From contig NZ_AP014945.1 in the NCBI RefSeq assembly GCF_001548275.1, forward strand, positions 1,080,001-1,112,000: 32,000 bases of DNA. The letters are read 5' to 3'. A program made the position numbers and the translations under genes. Every line of letters starts with the position of its first letter. Positions within the stretch are counted from its first letter, which is position 1. This document shows, piece by piece, positions 3,758 to 29,525 of this stretch. This DNA is from Caldimicrobium thiodismutans (lineage in GTDB: Bacteria; Desulfobacterota; Thermodesulfobacteria; Thermodesulfobacteriales; Thermodesulfobacteriaceae). Under the pieces are notes generated by a model. It saw only the letters and a list, made by a program, of their open reading frames with translations. It ran no database searches and was not told the DNA's origin.

Positions 3758-3985
3758 TTAGGACTCTTCTTTTTGATAGAATTTAGAGTATTTTTTCATG
3801 AATTTCTCAATTTTTCCTTCTGTATCAACAAAGCGGGTTTCTCCAGTAAAAAAGGGATGACAATTAGAACAGACCTCAACCCTAATCTCTTTGCGCGTTG
3901 AGCCAACTTTTATCTCATTTCCACAGGCACACCTAATCACTGCATCTTCATAATAAGGGGGATGAATATCTTTTTTCATAGCCAA
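3758..3985 (-). CDS. rpmE: 50S ribosomal protein L31
   Basis: 75 aa reading [46 protein letters not shown], the canonical Zn-ribbon type L31. Confidence 0.95.
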
Positions 3986-4215
3986 ACCTCTCCTTTTAAA
4001 AATTTTTCTTTAAAATAACCCTAAAATCCAAAAATTCAAGTTGTTGTATGCGTCCCCATCTTTTGAATCCTAAAGAGAAAAAATCCTTTTGATGATTACT
4101 CGTTGAATTCTTCCAATACAGTCCTTCTATAATTTTTGAGGTAGTATTTTTATTTATACAAAATATCCTCTTGTTGTTTCTGAGTTAATATAGATAGGTA
4201 AAAAATATGAATTTA

Positions 4216-4955
4216 TCAATTTTCAAAGAGTTTAAAGATATCTTCAGAGCTCTTCGCAAGAATTATTTCTCTATGCCACTCCTTAAGAACTTTTCTATCC
4301 TCCTCCCTTGCAACCCTCTACCTCACTTCCTCCGGCACATACCCGAGCTTCACCTCTATAGCCTCAAGCACAAGCTCCCTTGCTTACTATATTAACCCCA
4401 TGATATATCCCCTTGTTGAATCCCTTGCTCAATCCCCTGCTGATAAAACTTCTCTTCCTCACTCCTCTTTAAATCTACCACATGAAGCCTAAAAAGTTCC
4501 CCCTTTAACCCCTCTGGCACTGAAAATATCTTCTCTATCCTTTCAGGATACCCCCAGGGCTTATCCCCTTCATAGAATACAAGAGGTAAAACAGGCACAT
4601 ATCCCCTTCCCTCCTTGAGAGACTTTTCATTTAAAGCGGTTATGTAATTTAAGATCTGAAGGTAAATTCTTTTATCAGGTGCACTTTTGTGCTAAATAAG
4701 GATATAGAGATGGGCTTTGGTTGAAGGTTTACCTTCACTAAGAAGATTAACCTCAGCAACAATATCTGGGATTTCTCGCTTTTTTCTTGAGAGAGAAACT
4801 TGCTCTTCCGGGATAATTTTAAGGGAGTCAAAGTCAAGATGCCTTTTAATGTGATCAGGGAGGAAGGTTGAGAGGAAGGCTTTTAAGTTTTCAGGGTCTT
4901 TGAGGAAGGCCTTGGCAAAAAGGTCATAGGGAATGGGATGTTTCTTCCTTGACAT
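4216..4955 (-). pseudogene. Rpn-family (YhgA-like, PD-(D/E)XK) recombination-promoting nuclease / putative transposase, disrupted
   Basis: The N-terminal MSRKKHPIPYDLFAKAFLKDPENLKAFLSTFLP..DIVAEV..HLYILI is cut by an in-frame TAG at 4692-4694, exactly where LIEHKS is expected. The same frame then continues HKSAPDKRIYLQILNYITAL..PVLPLVFYEGDKPW..QQGIEQGIQQG to a TAA at 4392-4394. The family-typical C-terminus (..LVLEAIEVKLGYVPEEVR*RVAREEDRKVLKEWHREIILAKSSEDIFKLFEN) lies in another frame and carries a further TAG at 4318-4320. Confidence 0.7.
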
Positions 4956-5101
4956 AAAGGTATTTTGCCAGAATTTAGAGGGTTTTCAAGTTGTAAGGTT
5001 GGTAAGGGTCTTATAAAGGTTTAAAGGGGGGACCTGAGAAGTTGAGATTTTTAAATAAGGTTTTAATTTAAAAGAGTAGAAATAAAAAGTTAACTGGGTC
5101 T

Positions 5102-6340
5102 ATGAATTTGCAGATTCTTAGTCCTGATAGAAGTTTATTGAAAAAACTTAATATTCTTGCTATGTCTGCAAGATATGATAATTCCTGTAGTAGTTCTGGA
5201 AGTAGAAGAGAAACACCTGCCCAGGGTATAGGGAATGGGTATATCTCTGGGATTTGCCATACCTGGAGTGCTGATGGAAGATGTGTTTCTCTTTTAAAAA
5301 TTTTAATGACCAATTTCTGTAAAAATGATTGCAAGTATTGTATTAACAGAAGGCAAAATGATGTTCCCAGGGCCATTTTTACTCCTGAGGAGATTGCCAG
5401 TCTAACTATTGAATTCTACAGAAGAAACTACATTGAGGGGCTCTTTTTGAGCTCTGGGATTTATCGCTCCCCAGATGATACTATGGAGCTTATGTTAAGA
5501 GCTATAAAGATTTTAAGAGAGAAATACCACTTTGGAGGATACATACATTTAAAACTTATCCCAGGAGCAAGTGATGTGTTAATTTCAGAGGCTTTAAAAC
5601 TTGCAGACAGAGTTAGCTCCAATCTTGAATTAGCTACAGAGACCTCACTCCGAGCCTTAGCTTCTGAAAAGAACTTTGCCCTTCTTTTTGCTCCCTTAAA
5701 GATAGTAAGAGAACAATATGAAAATAAAGAGATAAAGGCTCCAGCATCTACCCAAGTTATAATTGGTGCCAGTCCAGATACAGATAAAACTATTTTAAAT
5801 TTGGCACAAAGATTATATATAAAAAAGATGGTAAGACGGGTTTATTATTCTGCCTATATTCCTCTAAATATGGATCCAGCTCTTCCTGTTCTCTCATCTC
5901 CTCCTTTCCTTCGGGAACACCGTCTTTATCAAGCCGATTGGTTGTTGCGTTTTTATGGCTTTAATATAGATGAACTTTTTGAAAACTCAGAAAATTTGGA
6001 GCTTAATCTTGATCCAAAACTTGCTTGGGCTTTAAGAAATCTTATTTTTTTTCCTGTAGAAATTACAAAAGCAGATTATTGGGAATTAATAAGGGTTCCG
6101 GGAATTGGGCCAACCTCAGCCAAAAAGATCATTCAGGCAAGAAAATATGGTCCCCTTTCGGATGAGATTCTAAAAAATCTTGGCGTTCCTCTTAAAAGGG
6201 CTCGTTATTTTATTACTATTAAAGGCAAATGTTTAGTTAGAAATAGAAAAATGAAAATATTAGAAAATAAGCACCCCTCTCTTTTTAAAGAATTTTCAGA
6301 TACAGAATGGCCAAAAAGCTATGCCTATTTACCTATATGA
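5102..6340 (+). CDS. Putative DNA modification/repair radical SAM protein (TIGR03916-like)
   Basis: 412 aa with the family-typical N-terminus (..LNILAMSARYDNSCSSSG), the radical-SAM cluster motif CKNDCKYC (CxxxCxxC) and a C-terminal helix-hairpin-helix (LIRVPGIGPTSAKKIIQARKYG). Confidence 0.85.
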   Translation: MNLQILSPDRSLLKKLNILAMSARYDNSCSSSGSRRETPAQGIGNGYISGICHTWSADGRCVSLLKILMTNFCKNDCKYCINRRQNDVPRAIFTPEEIASLTIEFYRRNYIEGLFLSSGIYRSPDDTMELMLRAIKILREKYHFGGYIHLKLIPGASDVLISEALKLADRVSSNLELATETSLRALASEKNFALLFAPLKIVREQYENKEIKAPASTQVIIGASPDTDKTILNLAQRLYIKKMVRRVYYSAYIPLNMDPALPVLSSPPFLREHRLYQADWLLRFYGFNIDELFENSENLELNLDPKLAWALRNLIFFPVEITKADYWELIRVPGIGPTSAKKIIQARKYGPLSDEILKNLGVPLKRARYFITIKGKCLVRNRKMKILENKHPSLFKEFSDTEWPKSYAYLPI

Positions 6341-7064
6341 TGGCACATGGGAAGCCTTTTTAACTCTTCTTTCTCAATTGGTATTTGAAAAGTCTAATAA
6401 TCTTAATGAACTACGAGTTTATAATTTACGCTTACTTTGCAGAAAGGGGGTTCCTTTCCTTGGAGAAAAAATTGAGGTATCCGAGGTTTGGATTGAAAAG
6501 ATTAAAAAATTTATTCATGAAATTGGAGGAGACCAGTTGCTCAGAGAGGTTTATCACTGGTATCTATGTGATAGGGCCAATATTGAAATACCTCTTGCTA
6601 TGTGTTTAAAAAAGGCTGAAAAAGATCCTGAAATATTTTTGAGACCACAGATTATTGAGGCTGTAAAATTGCAAAAGGCAAAGAAATCCCTACTTAGGGA
6701 GAGACACAGGTGGCTTGGTTTTTTGCGGTTTTACTCGCCAGAAGAAGGAGTGCTCTTTGCAAGCTTTGAGCCCCAGTATAATGTATTACCTCTCCTTGGT
6801 GGACATTTTGTTAAAAGGTTCCCTCAGGAAAAGCTTTTTATTGTGGATACCTTAAGGGGGCTCCTTTTTCTTGGACAAGGAAGAAGAAGCAAGCTCCTGT
6901 TTCTTGAAGAATGGGATGTGGATTTAAAAAAACTTAAAGATCCCTTTTTTGAAATTTGGAAGACTTATTTTAGGGAAATTGCAGTTCCAGAAAGGGTTGA
7001 TTTAAAGCGTCAGCAAAAAAGAGTTCCTTTAAAAGTAAGGCCCTTTCTTCCAGAATTTATGTAA
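6321..7064 (+). CDS. TIGR03915-family 'probable DNA metabolism protein' (DUF4130), obligate partner of the radical SAM gene; no UDG fusion
   Basis: 247 aa reading IYLYDGTWEAFLTLL.., ..RERHRWLGFLRFYSPEEGVLFASFEPQYNVLPLLGGHFVKRF.. and ..IWKTYFREIAVPER... This matches my memory of the family. It overlaps the upstream radical SAM gene by 20 nt, suggesting translational coupling. Confidence 0.75.
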   Translation: MPIYLYDGTWEAFLTLLSQLVFEKSNNLNELRVYNLRLLCRKGVPFLGEKIEVSEVWIEKIKKFIHEIGGDQLLREVYHWYLCDRANIEIPLAMCLKKAEKDPEIFLRPQIIEAVKLQKAKKSLLRERHRWLGFLRFYSPEEGVLFASFEPQYNVLPLLGGHFVKRFPQEKLFIVDTLRGLLFLGQGRRSKLLFLEEWDVDLKKLKDPFFEIWKTYFREIAVPERVDLKRQQKRVPLKVRPFLPEFM

Positions 7065-8607
7065 CTTTTTCCCAGTGAAAGGAAACAATGTTTTTAGTAT
7101 CTTTACTAAAATCAAAGCCAAGGAGATAGAGCTCTTTGAACTTCCCTCTATATTTTTCGTGATACCCCTTTTCTTTAAGCTGTTCTATTGCCTTAGGGCT
7201 TTCTCCTTCCATCTCAACCACCTTAAACTCAACTATAAAACATCTCTCCTCAAAAATTATAGTTAAATCAATTCTTCCAAGGCTTGTATAATCCTCAGGG
7301 ATTACTTCAAAGCCTGCCCCCTCAAGAAAACTATAAACCACACTGGCATAATACCCTTCATATCCTGCTATCTCATTACTTCTATACCACTCATAGGGAA
7401 TCCCTGAAAAAAGGGCCTTTAAAACCTCTCCAAAGGCGGAAACCCTTCCCTCCCTCAAAGCCCTGGTTAACTTAAGGGTAAGCCTTGCACTCTCAGGCCC
7501 CTTCCTTGTCAAATAATCCACTATGTAATTATTCAGGGAAACTCTAACCTCTTTATTGGGATAACTCAGATAATAGAGGTATCCCGTTGGGATTTCTTCA
7601 ACTCCTTTTATGGTGAGATAGCCTGTTTGAAAGAGAAGGTTTTCTGGTTCAATAAAGTCCACATCAAAGCTTCCAAGGAGGCGCTCTGAAGCCATAAGTT
7701 CTGAGAGCTGGGGGATATAAAATTTCTTTTCCACCAGGAGTTTAATAAGAAAACTGGGAGTCCCTGTCTCAAACCAGTAAGGGTGAAATTGTCTTTCTTT
7801 TAGGTAAAGAAGCACATCAAAGGGATTGTAAACGGGTTCCCCAAGCCAGGAATAACCATTATACCAGCATTTAATAAGCTCTAAATCCTTATCTTGCAAT
7901 TCTTCCCCAAAGACCTTTTCAAGCTCTTTTTGAGTGTATCCACAGATAGTTGAATACTCTTTGCTTAAAGTAATATCTCTTAACTGATTTAGCCCTGAAA
8001 AAAGGGAAACCTTTGAGAATTTAGAAACTCCCGTTAGGAAAACAAATTTGAGCTGGGCATCAAGGGGCTTAAGAACACTATAAAAGTTTTTGAGGACATC
8101 TCTTACTGCCTTTGCAGTTTCTCTATCCTCAATGCAATCAAGAATGGGTTTATCATACTCATCAACAAGAACTACTACTTTAGATGCATACTTCTGAGAA
8201 AGTTTTAAGATTAGTTCCCTGAAACAGGCATGATAATCATCTTTCCATTTGCAGGTAATATCATAGAGATTTTGATGTTCCTCAAGTTGCTGAAGTATCC
8301 ATTTCTCAAGGGCTTCTGCACTTTTGACCTCTCCTCCCCCAAAATCAATATGAATAACGGGATACCTGATACTCCAGTCCCAGTTCTTTTCAAGATAGAG
8401 CCCCTGGAAAAGCTCTTTTCTTCCGAGGAAGGCCTGCTTCAGGGTATCCACAAAAAGGGATTTTCCAAATCTCCTCGGGCGAGAGAGAAAATAGTATTTC
8501 CCCCCGGAGGCAAGTTTTTCAACAAAATGAGTTTTATCCACATAATAATAGGGTTCTGAGCGAATCTCAACAAAGCTTGAAATCCCGATGGGTAGGTTTT
8601 TCCCCAT
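7057..8607 (-). CDS. AAA-ATPase-like (PF09820-type) protein with a C-terminal PD-(D/E)XK nuclease domain (PDDEXK_9 type)
   Basis: 516 aa. The N-terminus has GISSFVEIRSEPYYYVDKT and the Walker-A-like SRPRRFGKS, with Walker-B-like VVVLVDEYD. The C-terminus has GRIDLTIIFEERCFIVEFKV (D..ExK). Its 3' end overlaps the convergent TIGR03915 gene by 8 nt. Confidence 0.8.
   Translation of the reverse strand: MGKNLPIGISSFVEIRSEPYYYVDKTHFVEKLASGGKYYFLSRPRRFGKSLFVDTLKQAFLGRKELFQGLYLEKNWDWSIRYPVIHIDFGGGEVKSAEALEKWILQQLEEHQNLYDITCKWKDDYHACFRELILKLSQKYASKVVVLVDEYDKPILDCIEDRETAKAVRDVLKNFYSVLKPLDAQLKFVFLTGVSKFSKVSLFSGLNQLRDITLSKEYSTICGYTQKELEKVFGEELQDKDLELIKCWYNGYSWLGEPVYNPFDVLLYLKERQFHPYWFETGTPSFLIKLLVEKKFYIPQLSELMASERLLGSFDVDFIEPENLLFQTGYLTIKGVEEIPTGYLYYLSYPNKEVRVSLNNYIVDYLTRKGPESARLTLKLTRALREGRVSAFGEVLKALFSGIPYEWYRSNEIAGYEGYYASVVYSFLEGAGFEVIPEDYTSLGRIDLTIIFEERCFIVEFKVVEMEGESPKAIEQLKEKGYHEKYRGKFKELYLLGFDFSKDTKNIVSFHWEKVT
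8329..8607. repeat. 279-bp segment duplicated in inverted orientation at 29241..29519
   Basis: In my hand alignment of the encoded N-termini, 84 of 92 residues are identical (differences at positions 2, 27, 30, 33, 35, 53, 80 and 81). Nucleotide similarity is high throughout and stops abruptly after ..GATTTTGGGGGAGGAG. Confidence 0.85.
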
Positions 8608-8743
8608 AGCTTTATTTTAAGGCCTTTTTATCTGAATTTCAATATCAATATGTGGAACTTTAATATAAAAAGGGCCTTTATGAAGTAAGAGGAAGCAGTA
8701 TAAATTTATGCAAGAAGTTAATTAAGATTCAAGAAGACACATG

Positions 8744-8817
8744 CGCCCCCGGAGGGACTCGAACCCCCAACCTGCGGATTAGAAGTCCGCTGCTCTATCC
8801 TGTTGAGCTACAGGGGC
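8744..8817 (-). tRNA. tRNA-Arg (anticodon UCU)
   Basis: The reverse complement GCCCCTGTAGCTCAACAGGATAGAGCAGCGGACTTCTAATCCGCAGGTTGGGGGTTCGAGTCCCTCCGGGGGCG is 74 nt. It has a 7-bp acceptor stem, anticodon loop CT-TCT-AA and a TTCGAGT T-loop. Confidence 0.9.
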
Positions 8818-8828
8818 AAGCTCTCTAA

Positions 8829-8856
8829 AATTTAATCCAAAAATAATTTTTGACAA
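8829..8856 (-). promoter_or_regulatory. Candidate promoter for tRNA-Arg
   Basis: On the minus strand: TTGTCA (8856->8851), 16-nt spacer, TAAATT (8834->8829), about 11 nt upstream of the tRNA 5' end. Its -35 overlaps the -35 of the divergent + strand promoter. Confidence 0.35.
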
Positions 8857-8878
8857 GACCTCCTGAAAGGTGTATAAT
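8850..8878 (+). promoter_or_regulatory. Perfect-consensus sigma70 promoter (TTGACA-17-TATAAT) driving the 8887.. operon, probably as a leaderless mRNA
   Basis: TTGACA at 8850-8855, an exact 17-nt spacer, and TATAAT at 8873-8878. The ATG at 8887 is only 8 nt after the -10, and no Shine-Dalgarno sequence lies between them. Confidence 0.6.
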
Positions 8879-8886
8879 CTTACTCA

Positions 8887-9672
8887 ATGAACTGGGAAGA
8901 CCTCAGAAATCTCTTTTTTGAAGACTTAAAGGCCGAGTGGATAGGGGAGCGTCTCTTAAAGCAACCACCCTGGGAGGTCTTGAAAGAATTAAAATCCTTC
9001 TTACATGATTCTTTACCTGAGATACCCAGAATTTTATCACAAAAACAGCCCCTTTTAGAGGATTATTTTCTCTCAACTGAGGGAGACCTTATTCCTCTGA
9101 ATCAAATTACAAAAGAAGAAGATAATTATTTTTTTCGGGGGGCGAAAATTAAGGGAGCTATCTTAATGGCTGGAACTTATATAAAGGGAACACGCTTTTA
9201 CTTTGGGGAAGGTGTTATTGTTGAGCCCTTTAGTTATATTGAGGAACCTGCCTATTTTTCAGAGGGCACTCAGATTCGTCATGCCTCCTATGTGAGAGGA
9301 AGTGTCTATACAGGGAAAGGGGCTGTTATCGGGCACACAACTGAAGTAAAAAATTCTATCTTTTTAAAAGAAGCAAAGGCAGCTCACTTTGCCTATGTAG
9401 GAGATAGTATCCTTGGGGCAGAGGTAAATCTTGGTGCAGGTACAAAACTTGCAAACTTGAAATTTTTAAAAAGGGAAATTACCTTTGAAATTAATGAGGT
9501 AAAATTTAAGACAGGTCTAAGAAAAATGGGTGCCATCCTGGGGGATAGAGTTCAGACTGGATGTAATGTGGTGCTTCAGCCAGGCACCCTCCTTGGAAAG
9601 GGCACTGTAGTGTATCCAGGGATGACCGCTGGGTCTGGCTTTTTTCCACCGGGAAGCAAAATAAAATCTTAA
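8887..9672 (+). CDS. Left-handed beta-helix (hexapeptide-repeat) transferase-family protein, GlmU C-terminal-like
   Basis: 261 aa. The C-terminal two thirds show hexapeptide periodicity (..GAVIGHTTEVKNSIF..AHFAYVGDSILGAEVNLGAGTKLANL..GAILGDRVQTGCNVVLQPGTLLGKGTVV). No nucleotidyltransferase domain is present. Confidence 0.65.
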   Translation: MNWEDLRNLFFEDLKAEWIGERLLKQPPWEVLKELKSFLHDSLPEIPRILSQKQPLLEDYFLSTEGDLIPLNQITKEEDNYFFRGAKIKGAILMAGTYIKGTRFYFGEGVIVEPFSYIEEPAYFSEGTQIRHASYVRGSVYTGKGAVIGHTTEVKNSIFLKEAKAAHFAYVGDSILGAEVNLGAGTKLANLKFLKREITFEINEVKFKTGLRKMGAILGDRVQTGCNVVLQPGTLLGKGTVVYPGMTAGSGFFPPGSKIKS

Positions 9673-29240: not shown

Positions 29241-29525
29241 ATGAAGAAAAATCTTCCCATCGGGATTTCAAGCTTTGTTGAGATTCGCTCAGAACCTTAT
29301 TATTATGTGGATAAAACTCCCTTTGTAGCCAAACTTGTCTCCGAAGGAAAATATTATTTTCTCTCCCGTCCAAGGAGATTTGGAAAATCCCTTTTTATGG
29401 ATACCCTGAAACAGGCCTTCCTTGGGAGAAAAGAGCTTTTCCAGGGGCTCTATCTTGAGAAAAACTGGGACTGGAGTGTTAAGTATCCAGTTATTCATAT
29501 TGATTTTGGGGGAGGAGTTATTTGA
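29241..29525 (+). pseudogene. Truncated paralog (N-terminal 92 aa only) of the AAA-ATPase-like/PDDEXK gene at 7057..8607
   Basis: The ORF reads MKKNLPIGISSFVEIRSEPYYYVDKT..SRPRRFGKS..VIHIDFGGG and then stops. Homology to the full-length copy ends at 29519, where unrelated transposase-like sequence begins. Confidence 0.85.

Follow-up and report, generated by a model that had tools for sequence, protein, structure and literature searches.

What does a pair of overlapping genes encoding a radical S-adenosylmethionine (SAM) protein and a DUF4130 protein do in the thermophile Caldimicrobium thiodismutans? The pair lies at positions 5102-7064 of a 32,000-nucleotide (nt) stretch of this genome (the window, hereafter), and its host (label G000) has a complete single-contig genome of 1.81 Mb. 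An earlier reading of the sequence (the original prediction) had placed the two genes in the TIGR03916/TIGR03915 module, whose chemistry it correctly described as unestablished, and had held defence to be as likely a function as repair. We find that the pair is genuine and intact, and that it is typical of this catalogued, biochemically uncharacterised family. Particular to the present case are the LexA-less thermophilic host, the laterally exchanged accessory status of the pair, and indications from relatives that DUF4130 is dispensable or replaceable. The reading that we favour, with a probability of roughly 60%, is that the two genes form a self-contained operon whose enzyme processes DNA lesions. 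Its two genes are the following (evidence in brackets; aa, amino acids):

5102..6340, plus strand: gene for the radical-SAM protein P0001, 412 aa, TIGR03916/COG4277 (profile scores, motifs, fold)
6321..7064, plus strand: gene for the partner P0002, 247 aa, TIGR03915/PF13566 (DUF4130), stand-alone (profile scores, fold)

The radical-SAM protein and its DUF4130 partner

Both open reading frames (ORFs) and their overlap are as originally called, and the family assignment is borne out by profile searches, in which both proteins pass the cut-offs. P0001 scores 521.4 bits against TIGR03916 (cut-off 343.5; 520.7 bits in a whole-genome profile search) and also matches Pfam Radical_SAM. P0002 scores 137.9 bits against TIGR03915 (cut-off 112.25) over profile positions 1-243 of 243, and 106.9 bits against PF13566/DUF4130 (cut-off 27). 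As had been claimed, the partner is of the form without a uracil-DNA glycosylase (UDG) domain, no such domain being matched in P0002 in scans with NCBIfam and Pfam profiles. The overlap between the two genes measures 20 nt, is identical in the closest relative and suggests translational coupling.

The TIGR03916 enzyme keeps an identity of at least 49% over six phyla; its alignment has 87 invariant columns, and P0001 retains every one of them. A homology search returned at least 8000 protein clusters at E <= 1e-30. The CX3CX2C cluster motif of P0001 reads CKNDCKYC (residues 73-80), and its three cysteines (C73, C77 and C80) are invariant in 39 sequences from the six phyla. So are C29, C52, C61 and His53, which all precede the motif; from their conservation, these four residues could be auxiliary-cluster ligands or hydrogen-atom donors. 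The AlphaFold2 (AF2) model of P0001 has a mean predicted local distance difference test (pLDDT) score of 82.5, falling below 50 at residues 30-49, which overlap part of the region of the extra cysteines. It shows a generic radical-SAM core, the best Foldseek matches being HydE, LipA, PFL-AE, BioB and viperin.

At its C-terminal end P0001 carries a helix-hairpin-helix (HhH) module extending over about residues 305-360, the hairpin of which is legible in the sequence (VPGIGPTSAKKI). The HHH_3 profile is matched at 24.3 bits (residues 319-352), slightly below the Pfam threshold of 27, and a sequence search of the PDB (phmmer) matched this part of the protein with ComEA and RuvA chains (ComEA 2duy, E 2.5e-4). 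Judged by its sequence, the module is of the ComEA/RuvA-like type that binds DNA without sequence specificity. Beyond this module and the cluster-binding loop, the PDB sequence search found no solved relative of either P0001 or P0002.

The AF2 model of P0002 (pLDDT 90.8) is a confident two-lobed fold. In Foldseek it weakly resembles the DHH/DHHA1-RecJ-like fold of proteins that bind nucleotides and ssDNA (E 7e-3, template modelling (TM) score about 0.3), the top fold matches of DUF4130 including the dinucleotide phosphodiesterases PggH, TM1595 and NrnA. This resemblance, also described in bioRxiv 10.64898/2026.08.19.745780, was thus recovered independently here; the same source presents an AlphaFold3 (AF3) model of the DUF4130/radical-SAM complex with a narrow channel. 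P0002 contains no DHH tripeptide, nor does it match any DHH Pfam family at E <= 0.01, and the invariant residues of DUF4130 are mainly arginines and aromatic residues. DUF4130 therefore fits a binding role better than a catalytic one, and from its model P0002 probably binds rather than cuts. A search for further contigs encoding P0002 or P0049 gave no match.

Under the lesion-processing reading, the radical-SAM enzyme and DUF4130 would form a heterodimer in which the HhH module would grip DNA and DUF4130 would offer a damaged nucleotide, flipped out or single-stranded, to the SAM/[4Fe-4S] site. A 5'-deoxyadenosyl radical would then abstract a hydrogen atom, and a replication-blocking lesion would be reversed or resolved in a manner resembling that of spore photoproduct lyase (SPL), although P0001 does not belong to the SPL family.

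Regulation of homologous operons

In bacteria that have LexA, the operon appears to be under damage control. The 392 kb of DNA from 33 Firmicutes-labelled loci contain 18 exact Cheo-type LexA boxes (GAAC-N4-GTTC), of which 16 are located between -200 and +10 relative to the start of the radical-SAM gene. The density of these Clostridial boxes is 2.9 per kb upstream of the operon as against 0.005 per kb elsewhere (about 560-fold); half of the Clostridial loci (13/26) have an exact site, and near matches are found in others. DUF4130 was tied to SOS contexts as early as 2013 (PMC3765255), and the COG1573-COG4277 operon has been reported as SOS-regulated in Verrucomicrobia and Alphaproteobacteria and predicted to be so in Bacteroidetes (PMC8565304). 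In Acinetobacter, knockout of ddaA lowers basal transcription more than two-fold for a radical-SAM gene and a TIGR03915-family gene, both listed as damage-response genes (PMC12392091). The Bacteroidetes SOS motifs (GGA-N5-TCC/TTC and CTAA-N5-TTAG) have no consistent match upstream of the 14 Bacteroidota loci that we scanned.

It is because of the Clostridial LexA boxes and these published damage regulons that we favour repair over defence. The original view that defence is as likely as repair gives defence too much weight in the light of this evidence; in addition, PADLOC returned nothing significant, and defence genes are not enriched in the neighbourhoods described below.

All nine Synergistota loci (L042, L046, L048, L056, L058, L061, L065, L073 and L081) carry one palindrome, TAAC-N5-GTTA, 9-15 nt upstream of the estimated start of the radical-SAM gene, with none elsewhere in 130 kb. 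Its full form is G(A/C)TAAC-N5-GTTA(G/T)C. In three whole genomes the strict 17-mer occurs at the pair operon only, so it is not regulon-wide and was rejected as a LexA box; it is probably a dedicated operator.

The SOS evidence from other phyla is not directly transferable to C. thiodismutans, because this host has no LexA. The LexA DNA-binding domain (PF01726) has no match in its genome, and its sole S24 peptidase, of 127 aa, is UmuD-like and is encoded next to a Y-family polymerase gene. Among 24 other Thermodesulfobacteriaceae genomes, none has a LexA DNA-binding domain above the Pfam cut-off (one sub-threshold match, in G011). The umuD-like gene and the polymerase gene (418 aa) are found at L004:229-1878(-), that is, at about 396.5-398.1 kb of G000:C1, 6 nt downstream of an adenosylhomocysteinase-like gene. 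For the case in favour of repair, the original prediction had pictured SOS regulation inside core repair operons: SOS control is indeed seen in other bacteria, location in a core repair operon is not, and SOS control cannot apply in a LexA-less host.

Neighbourhoods of the UDG-less variant

The UDG-less variant was sought with a pattern scan of one genome per species, which recovered 70 loci; these come from Clostridia, Synergistota, Bacteroidota, Thermodesulfobacteriota, Atribacterota and Kiritimatiellota. The radical-SAM gene lies directly upstream of the DUF4130 gene, on the same strand and usually overlapping it, in all loci with upstream DNA but one, and the majority of loci are surrounded by housekeeping or metabolic genes. 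The 118 neighbours examined (at most two genes away, at about 45 loci) span 127 Pfam families, none of which is matched by more than four neighbours. UDG, LexA, Y-family polymerase, ImuB and restriction-modification families are all absent from the 25 most frequent families of these neighbours. The UDG-less pair is a free-standing operon, outside core repair operons and defence islands.

Two kinds of recurring neighbour were considered individually. Patatin and SIR2 genes accompany the pair in Anaerovoracaceae, where the sirtuin is a full-length Sir2-family match (183 bits); this association was rejected as lineage synteny, all the loci coming from related families. In three Caldimicrobium relatives, genes for a PhnD-like protein and a dCache-PAS-GGDEF protein stand beside the pair, in two gene orders (L017:9736-12532, L021:10712-13466 and L023:5592-8346), and in five Synergistaceae loci (L042, L058, L061, L073 and L081) a PAS-GAF-GGDEF gene of roughly 1000 aa lies upstream of the pair on the opposite strand. 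GGDEF genes account for 7 of 240 ORFs one or two positions away from the pair as against 2 of 492 further out, in about three independent lineages only.

The enzyme without DUF4130 or with other partners

The two genes had been described as always paired, which is not the case in this lineage. Of 61 related genomes, 24 have a match above the cut-off for TIGR03916 and 11 have one for TIGR03915, and solo TIGR03916 enzymes 65-75% identical to P0001 are found in G018 (L106), in G024 (L107), as a second copy in G031 (L113) and in G011 (L114). Two of these genomes, G018 and G024, are complete and consist of one contig. No DUF4130 remnant lies near the solo enzymes, and TIGR03915 has no match at all in G011, G018 and G024; in G031 its single match sits beside the other radical-SAM copy. 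Outside the lineage, Bacteroides thetaiotaomicron and Caulobacter vibrioides each possess both genes, with scores above the cut-offs.

Elsewhere in the lineage the enzyme gene is coupled to something else. In G036, a gene for a 368-aa protein with B12-binding_2 and B12-binding domains overlaps the enzyme gene by 20 nt (L026:351-1457(-)), the DUF4130 gene sitting on a different contig. In G033, a class-I SAM methyltransferase takes the place of DUF4130 with a 17-nt overlap (L109:5805-6482(+)). In G029, a single ORF of 1235 aa fuses the radical-SAM-HhH enzyme to PAS-GAF-PAS-GGDEF-EAL (L108:3052-6759(-)). A 675-aa ORF from a soil Bacteroidetes metagenome-assembled genome (MAG), L077:6414-8441(+), matches both radical-SAM and DUF4130; it may be a true fusion or the result of an overlooked stop.

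Because the enzyme of this lineage occurs without DUF4130 and without LexA, DUF4130 looks like an accessory specificity factor rather than an obligate catalytic subunit. A broader proposal, which we consider rather improbable, is that TIGR03916 in the Thermodesulfobacteriaceae, whose searched genomes lack LexA, is a modular core working alone or with interchangeable partners, with DUF4130 as an optional specificity or regulatory subunit, and that its role may exceed SOS repair, possibly extending through nucleic-acid or dinucleotide chemistry to signalling by cyclic di-GMP (c-di-GMP).

A related idea has the modular core act on a nucleotide or dinucleotide, or feed c-di-GMP signalling, with DUF4130 as one of several interchangeable partners. 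The G029 fusion would fit it, as would the PAS-GGDEF genes adjoining the pair in Caldimicrobium relatives and Synergistaceae, their excess close to the pair, and the presence of PggH, TM1595 and NrnA among the best fold matches of DUF4130. However, GGDEF genes are common, the cases come from three lineages whose members are kin and not independent, and the pair in C. thiodismutans has no GGDEF neighbour. The HhH module and the LexA boxes indicate DNA instead, and DUF4130 lacks the DHH catalytic motifs. We hold this related idea to be very doubtful.

Distribution, transfer and loss

The accessory character that the original prediction saw in the locus is upheld by its distribution, the pair being patchy, non-syntenic and moved between phyla. 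TIGR03915 is present in 6/13 genomes of the same genus and 5/10 of the sister genus (Thermodesulfobacterium by locus titles), and in none of the 37 other relatives searched. The genes flanking the pair show no synteny between relatives. One same-genus genome that is 99% complete (G009) has both genes pseudogenised, with stops and frame breaks (L023:8442-10001, on G009:C26).

In a maximum-likelihood tree of the enzyme, the thermophile sequences form a clade (support 98/94) in which a Caldatribacterium (Atribacterota) sequence is nested among those of Caldimicrobium, and a Thermodesulfovibrio (Nitrospirota) sequence among those of Thermodesulfobacterium and Thermodesulfatator. Such nesting across phyla implies that the pair is an accessory trait exchanged between hot-spring anaerobes, and the C. 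thiodismutans pair was probably acquired horizontally.

In the closest relative with context (78% and 63% identity), the two genes lie between a polysaccharide-export cluster and an island of Mrr_N, type IIG methyltransferase, SNF2 and PLD genes. This arrangement would fit the possibility that the pair is a DNA-modifying system, in which the enzyme would install an epigenetic or mutagenic base modification in undamaged DNA and DUF4130 would pick the target, as an accessory and horizontally spread trait. The family is named 'modification/repair' in databases, its distribution is accessory and crosses phyla, and the G033 enzyme is coupled to a methyltransferase and not to DUF4130, all of which would suit modification. 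Yet about 860 kb separate the pair from the C. thiodismutans homologues of the restriction-modification island, the 118 neighbours include no recurring nuclease or reader partner, and the Clostridial LexA boxes point to damage-induced rather than constitutive expression. A modifying role is, in our view, unlikely.

In Caldimicrobium sp. SKYB6, the pair has a DNA photolyase gene (PF00875; L017:12495-13898(-)) at a distance of about 3 kb. Linkage with photolyase was rejected, as it is not conserved and the C. thiodismutans homologue is about 310 kb from the pair.

The locus and its host genome

Around the pair in the window, the following features were recorded, the last three as context only:

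4956..5101, plus strand: upstream region of 146 nt, AT-rich, presumed promoter (sequence)
4392..4955, minus strand: decayed Rpn/YhgA-like (PF04754) gene, in two fragments, 4692-4955 and 4392-4598
7057..8607, minus strand: AAA-ATPase_like + PDDEXK_9 gene P0003, 516 aa, convergent with the pair (Pfam)
8743..8817, minus strand: tRNA-Arg(TCT) (tRNA call)

The 146 nt upstream of the pair contain no Cheo-type LexA box, and no common upstream motif is visible among the Thermodesulfobacteriaceae copies. They do contain an AT-only inverted repeat, TTTTAAAT-N9-ATTTAAAA, at 5049-5073, which may be due to chance. The same may be true of a 15-nt direct repeat with 2 mismatches that closely brackets the pair (TTTTGCCAGAATTTA at 4963-4977 and TTCTTCCAGAATTTA at 7045-7059). 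A search across 3900-8900 found neither an att-like direct repeat of the tRNA 3' end nor any other island border, short and probably fortuitous repeats being all that was seen.

The flanks described in the original prediction (a decayed Rpn gene, an AAA-ATPase/PD-(D/E)XK gene and a tRNA) are real. The N-terminal half of the Rpn gene survives in two frames and its C-terminal half is lost, the remnant being 53% identical to residues 7-156 of an intact relative; the genome holds about 8 full-length and 4 decayed copies of this family. P0003 has 14 full-length paralogues in the genome (63-94% aa identity), an expansion which, in 1.8 Mb, looks like that of a proliferating selfish or mobile gene family. 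Two more copies of the AAA/PD-(D/E)XK family are broken or partial, one of them an 88-aa N-terminal remnant at 29241-29504(+). In a MAG of a sister strain, the radical-SAM protein is 99% identical, the layout is the same and the pair is intact, and the AAA/PD-(D/E)XK gene is in three pieces.

Since both flanking families are multi-copy and scattered genome-wide, they are uninformative on the function of the pair, and their use as a functional clue, together with the 'defence island' inference drawn from it, has to be withdrawn as false. The corresponding explanation would make the pair an anti-phage defence or counter-defence module, in an island with the Rpn and AAA/PD-(D/E)XK nucleases. It would account for the patchy distribution, shifting location and horizontal transfer and for the nuclease-family genes on both flanks, and one Moraxellaceae regulator is known to govern damage-response and defence genes alike (PMC12392091). 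Against this, PADLOC has no match for P0001 and only an insignificant AbiEii match for P0002 (E 0.002, 15.7 bits), and with so many paralogues and remnants of both families their adjacency to the pair is expected by chance. Moreover, the AAA/PD-(D/E)XK neighbour is broken in the sister strain where the pair is intact, and homologous loci lie for the most part among housekeeping or metabolic genes. Defence is thus an extremely improbable function for the pair.

It could also be that the C. thiodismutans pair is a dispensable passenger heading for loss and no longer functional. About half of the searched genomes of the same genus lack it, it has been pseudogenised in G009, and it is located here among decaying repeat-family genes. 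But neither frame is broken, every family-invariant residue is retained, and the sister MAG has a 99% identical enzyme in the same arrangement. We give this explanation hardly any credence.

The host does possess the kind of standalone family-4 UDG that the original prediction had suggested looking for. Its sole UDG is an ordinary family-4 enzyme (TIGR00758, 135.9 bits, cut-off 125.3) about 540 kb from the pair. No UdgX-type UDG is encoded in this genome, the sole UDG scoring 88.4 bits on TIGR03914 (cut-off 189.95), a model that NCBIfam currently names 'UdgX family uracil-DNA binding protein'.

Weighing the lesion-processing reading

Several points weigh against the lesion-processing reading. 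The host has no LexA, so that the damage control seen elsewhere may not extend to the C. thiodismutans copy, and no repair genes recur beside the pair among the 118 neighbours. The patchy distribution, the pseudogenised copy and the crossing of phyla would fit a dispensable or selfish function as well. In many relatives the enzyme stands without DUF4130, and a heterodimer can therefore not be the rule everywhere; the resemblance to the DHH fold, too, is weak (E about 7e-3, TM 0.3). We count in favour of lesion processing the persistence of an intact pair in the sister strain, despite the decay of a neighbouring gene.

The radical-SAM/DUF4130 cassette is among the most widespread damage-response modules without a known reaction. 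The solo enzymes of the C. thiodismutans lineage and the absence of LexA constrain models of the role of DUF4130, and the thermostable proteins of this strictly anaerobic host may be well suited to reconstitution under anaerobic conditions and to structural studies.

Comparison with known systems

The C. thiodismutans pair matches the catalogued TIGR03916/TIGR03915 cassette in profile cut-offs, gene order, overlap, CX3CX2C motif and HhH module, and its stand-alone DUF4130 is the form found in all 70 loci recovered. It differs from the cassette as catalogued in that its host lacks LexA and a UdgX-type UDG, and in that the enzyme is commoner than DUF4130 in its lineage, other partners being possible. 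The UDG-fused COG1573-COG4277 operon (TIGR03914), whose membership in damage regulons is documented (PMC8565304), has the same radical-SAM family and a DUF4130 domain, whereas the partner in C. thiodismutans has no UDG/UdgX domain.

Two further comparisons concern the proteins individually. The DHH/DHHA1 phosphoesterases (RecJ, NrnA, PggH and PAP phosphatase) possess the DHH motif that is absent from P0002, and the TM score of the resemblance is only about 0.3. As for SPL, P0001 matches no SPL model in NCBIfam at E <= 0.01, and no SPL chain occurs among its phmmer matches in the PDB or its top 50 Foldseek matches. SPL is not known to have a DUF4130 partner or an HhH module at its C-terminal end. 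SPL (SplB, COG1533) is, like P0001, a radical-SAM protein; it acts on DNA, is a member of SOS regulons, and, through its direct reversal of a lesion via the 5'-deoxyadenosyl radical, offers the best mechanistic analogy for the pair.

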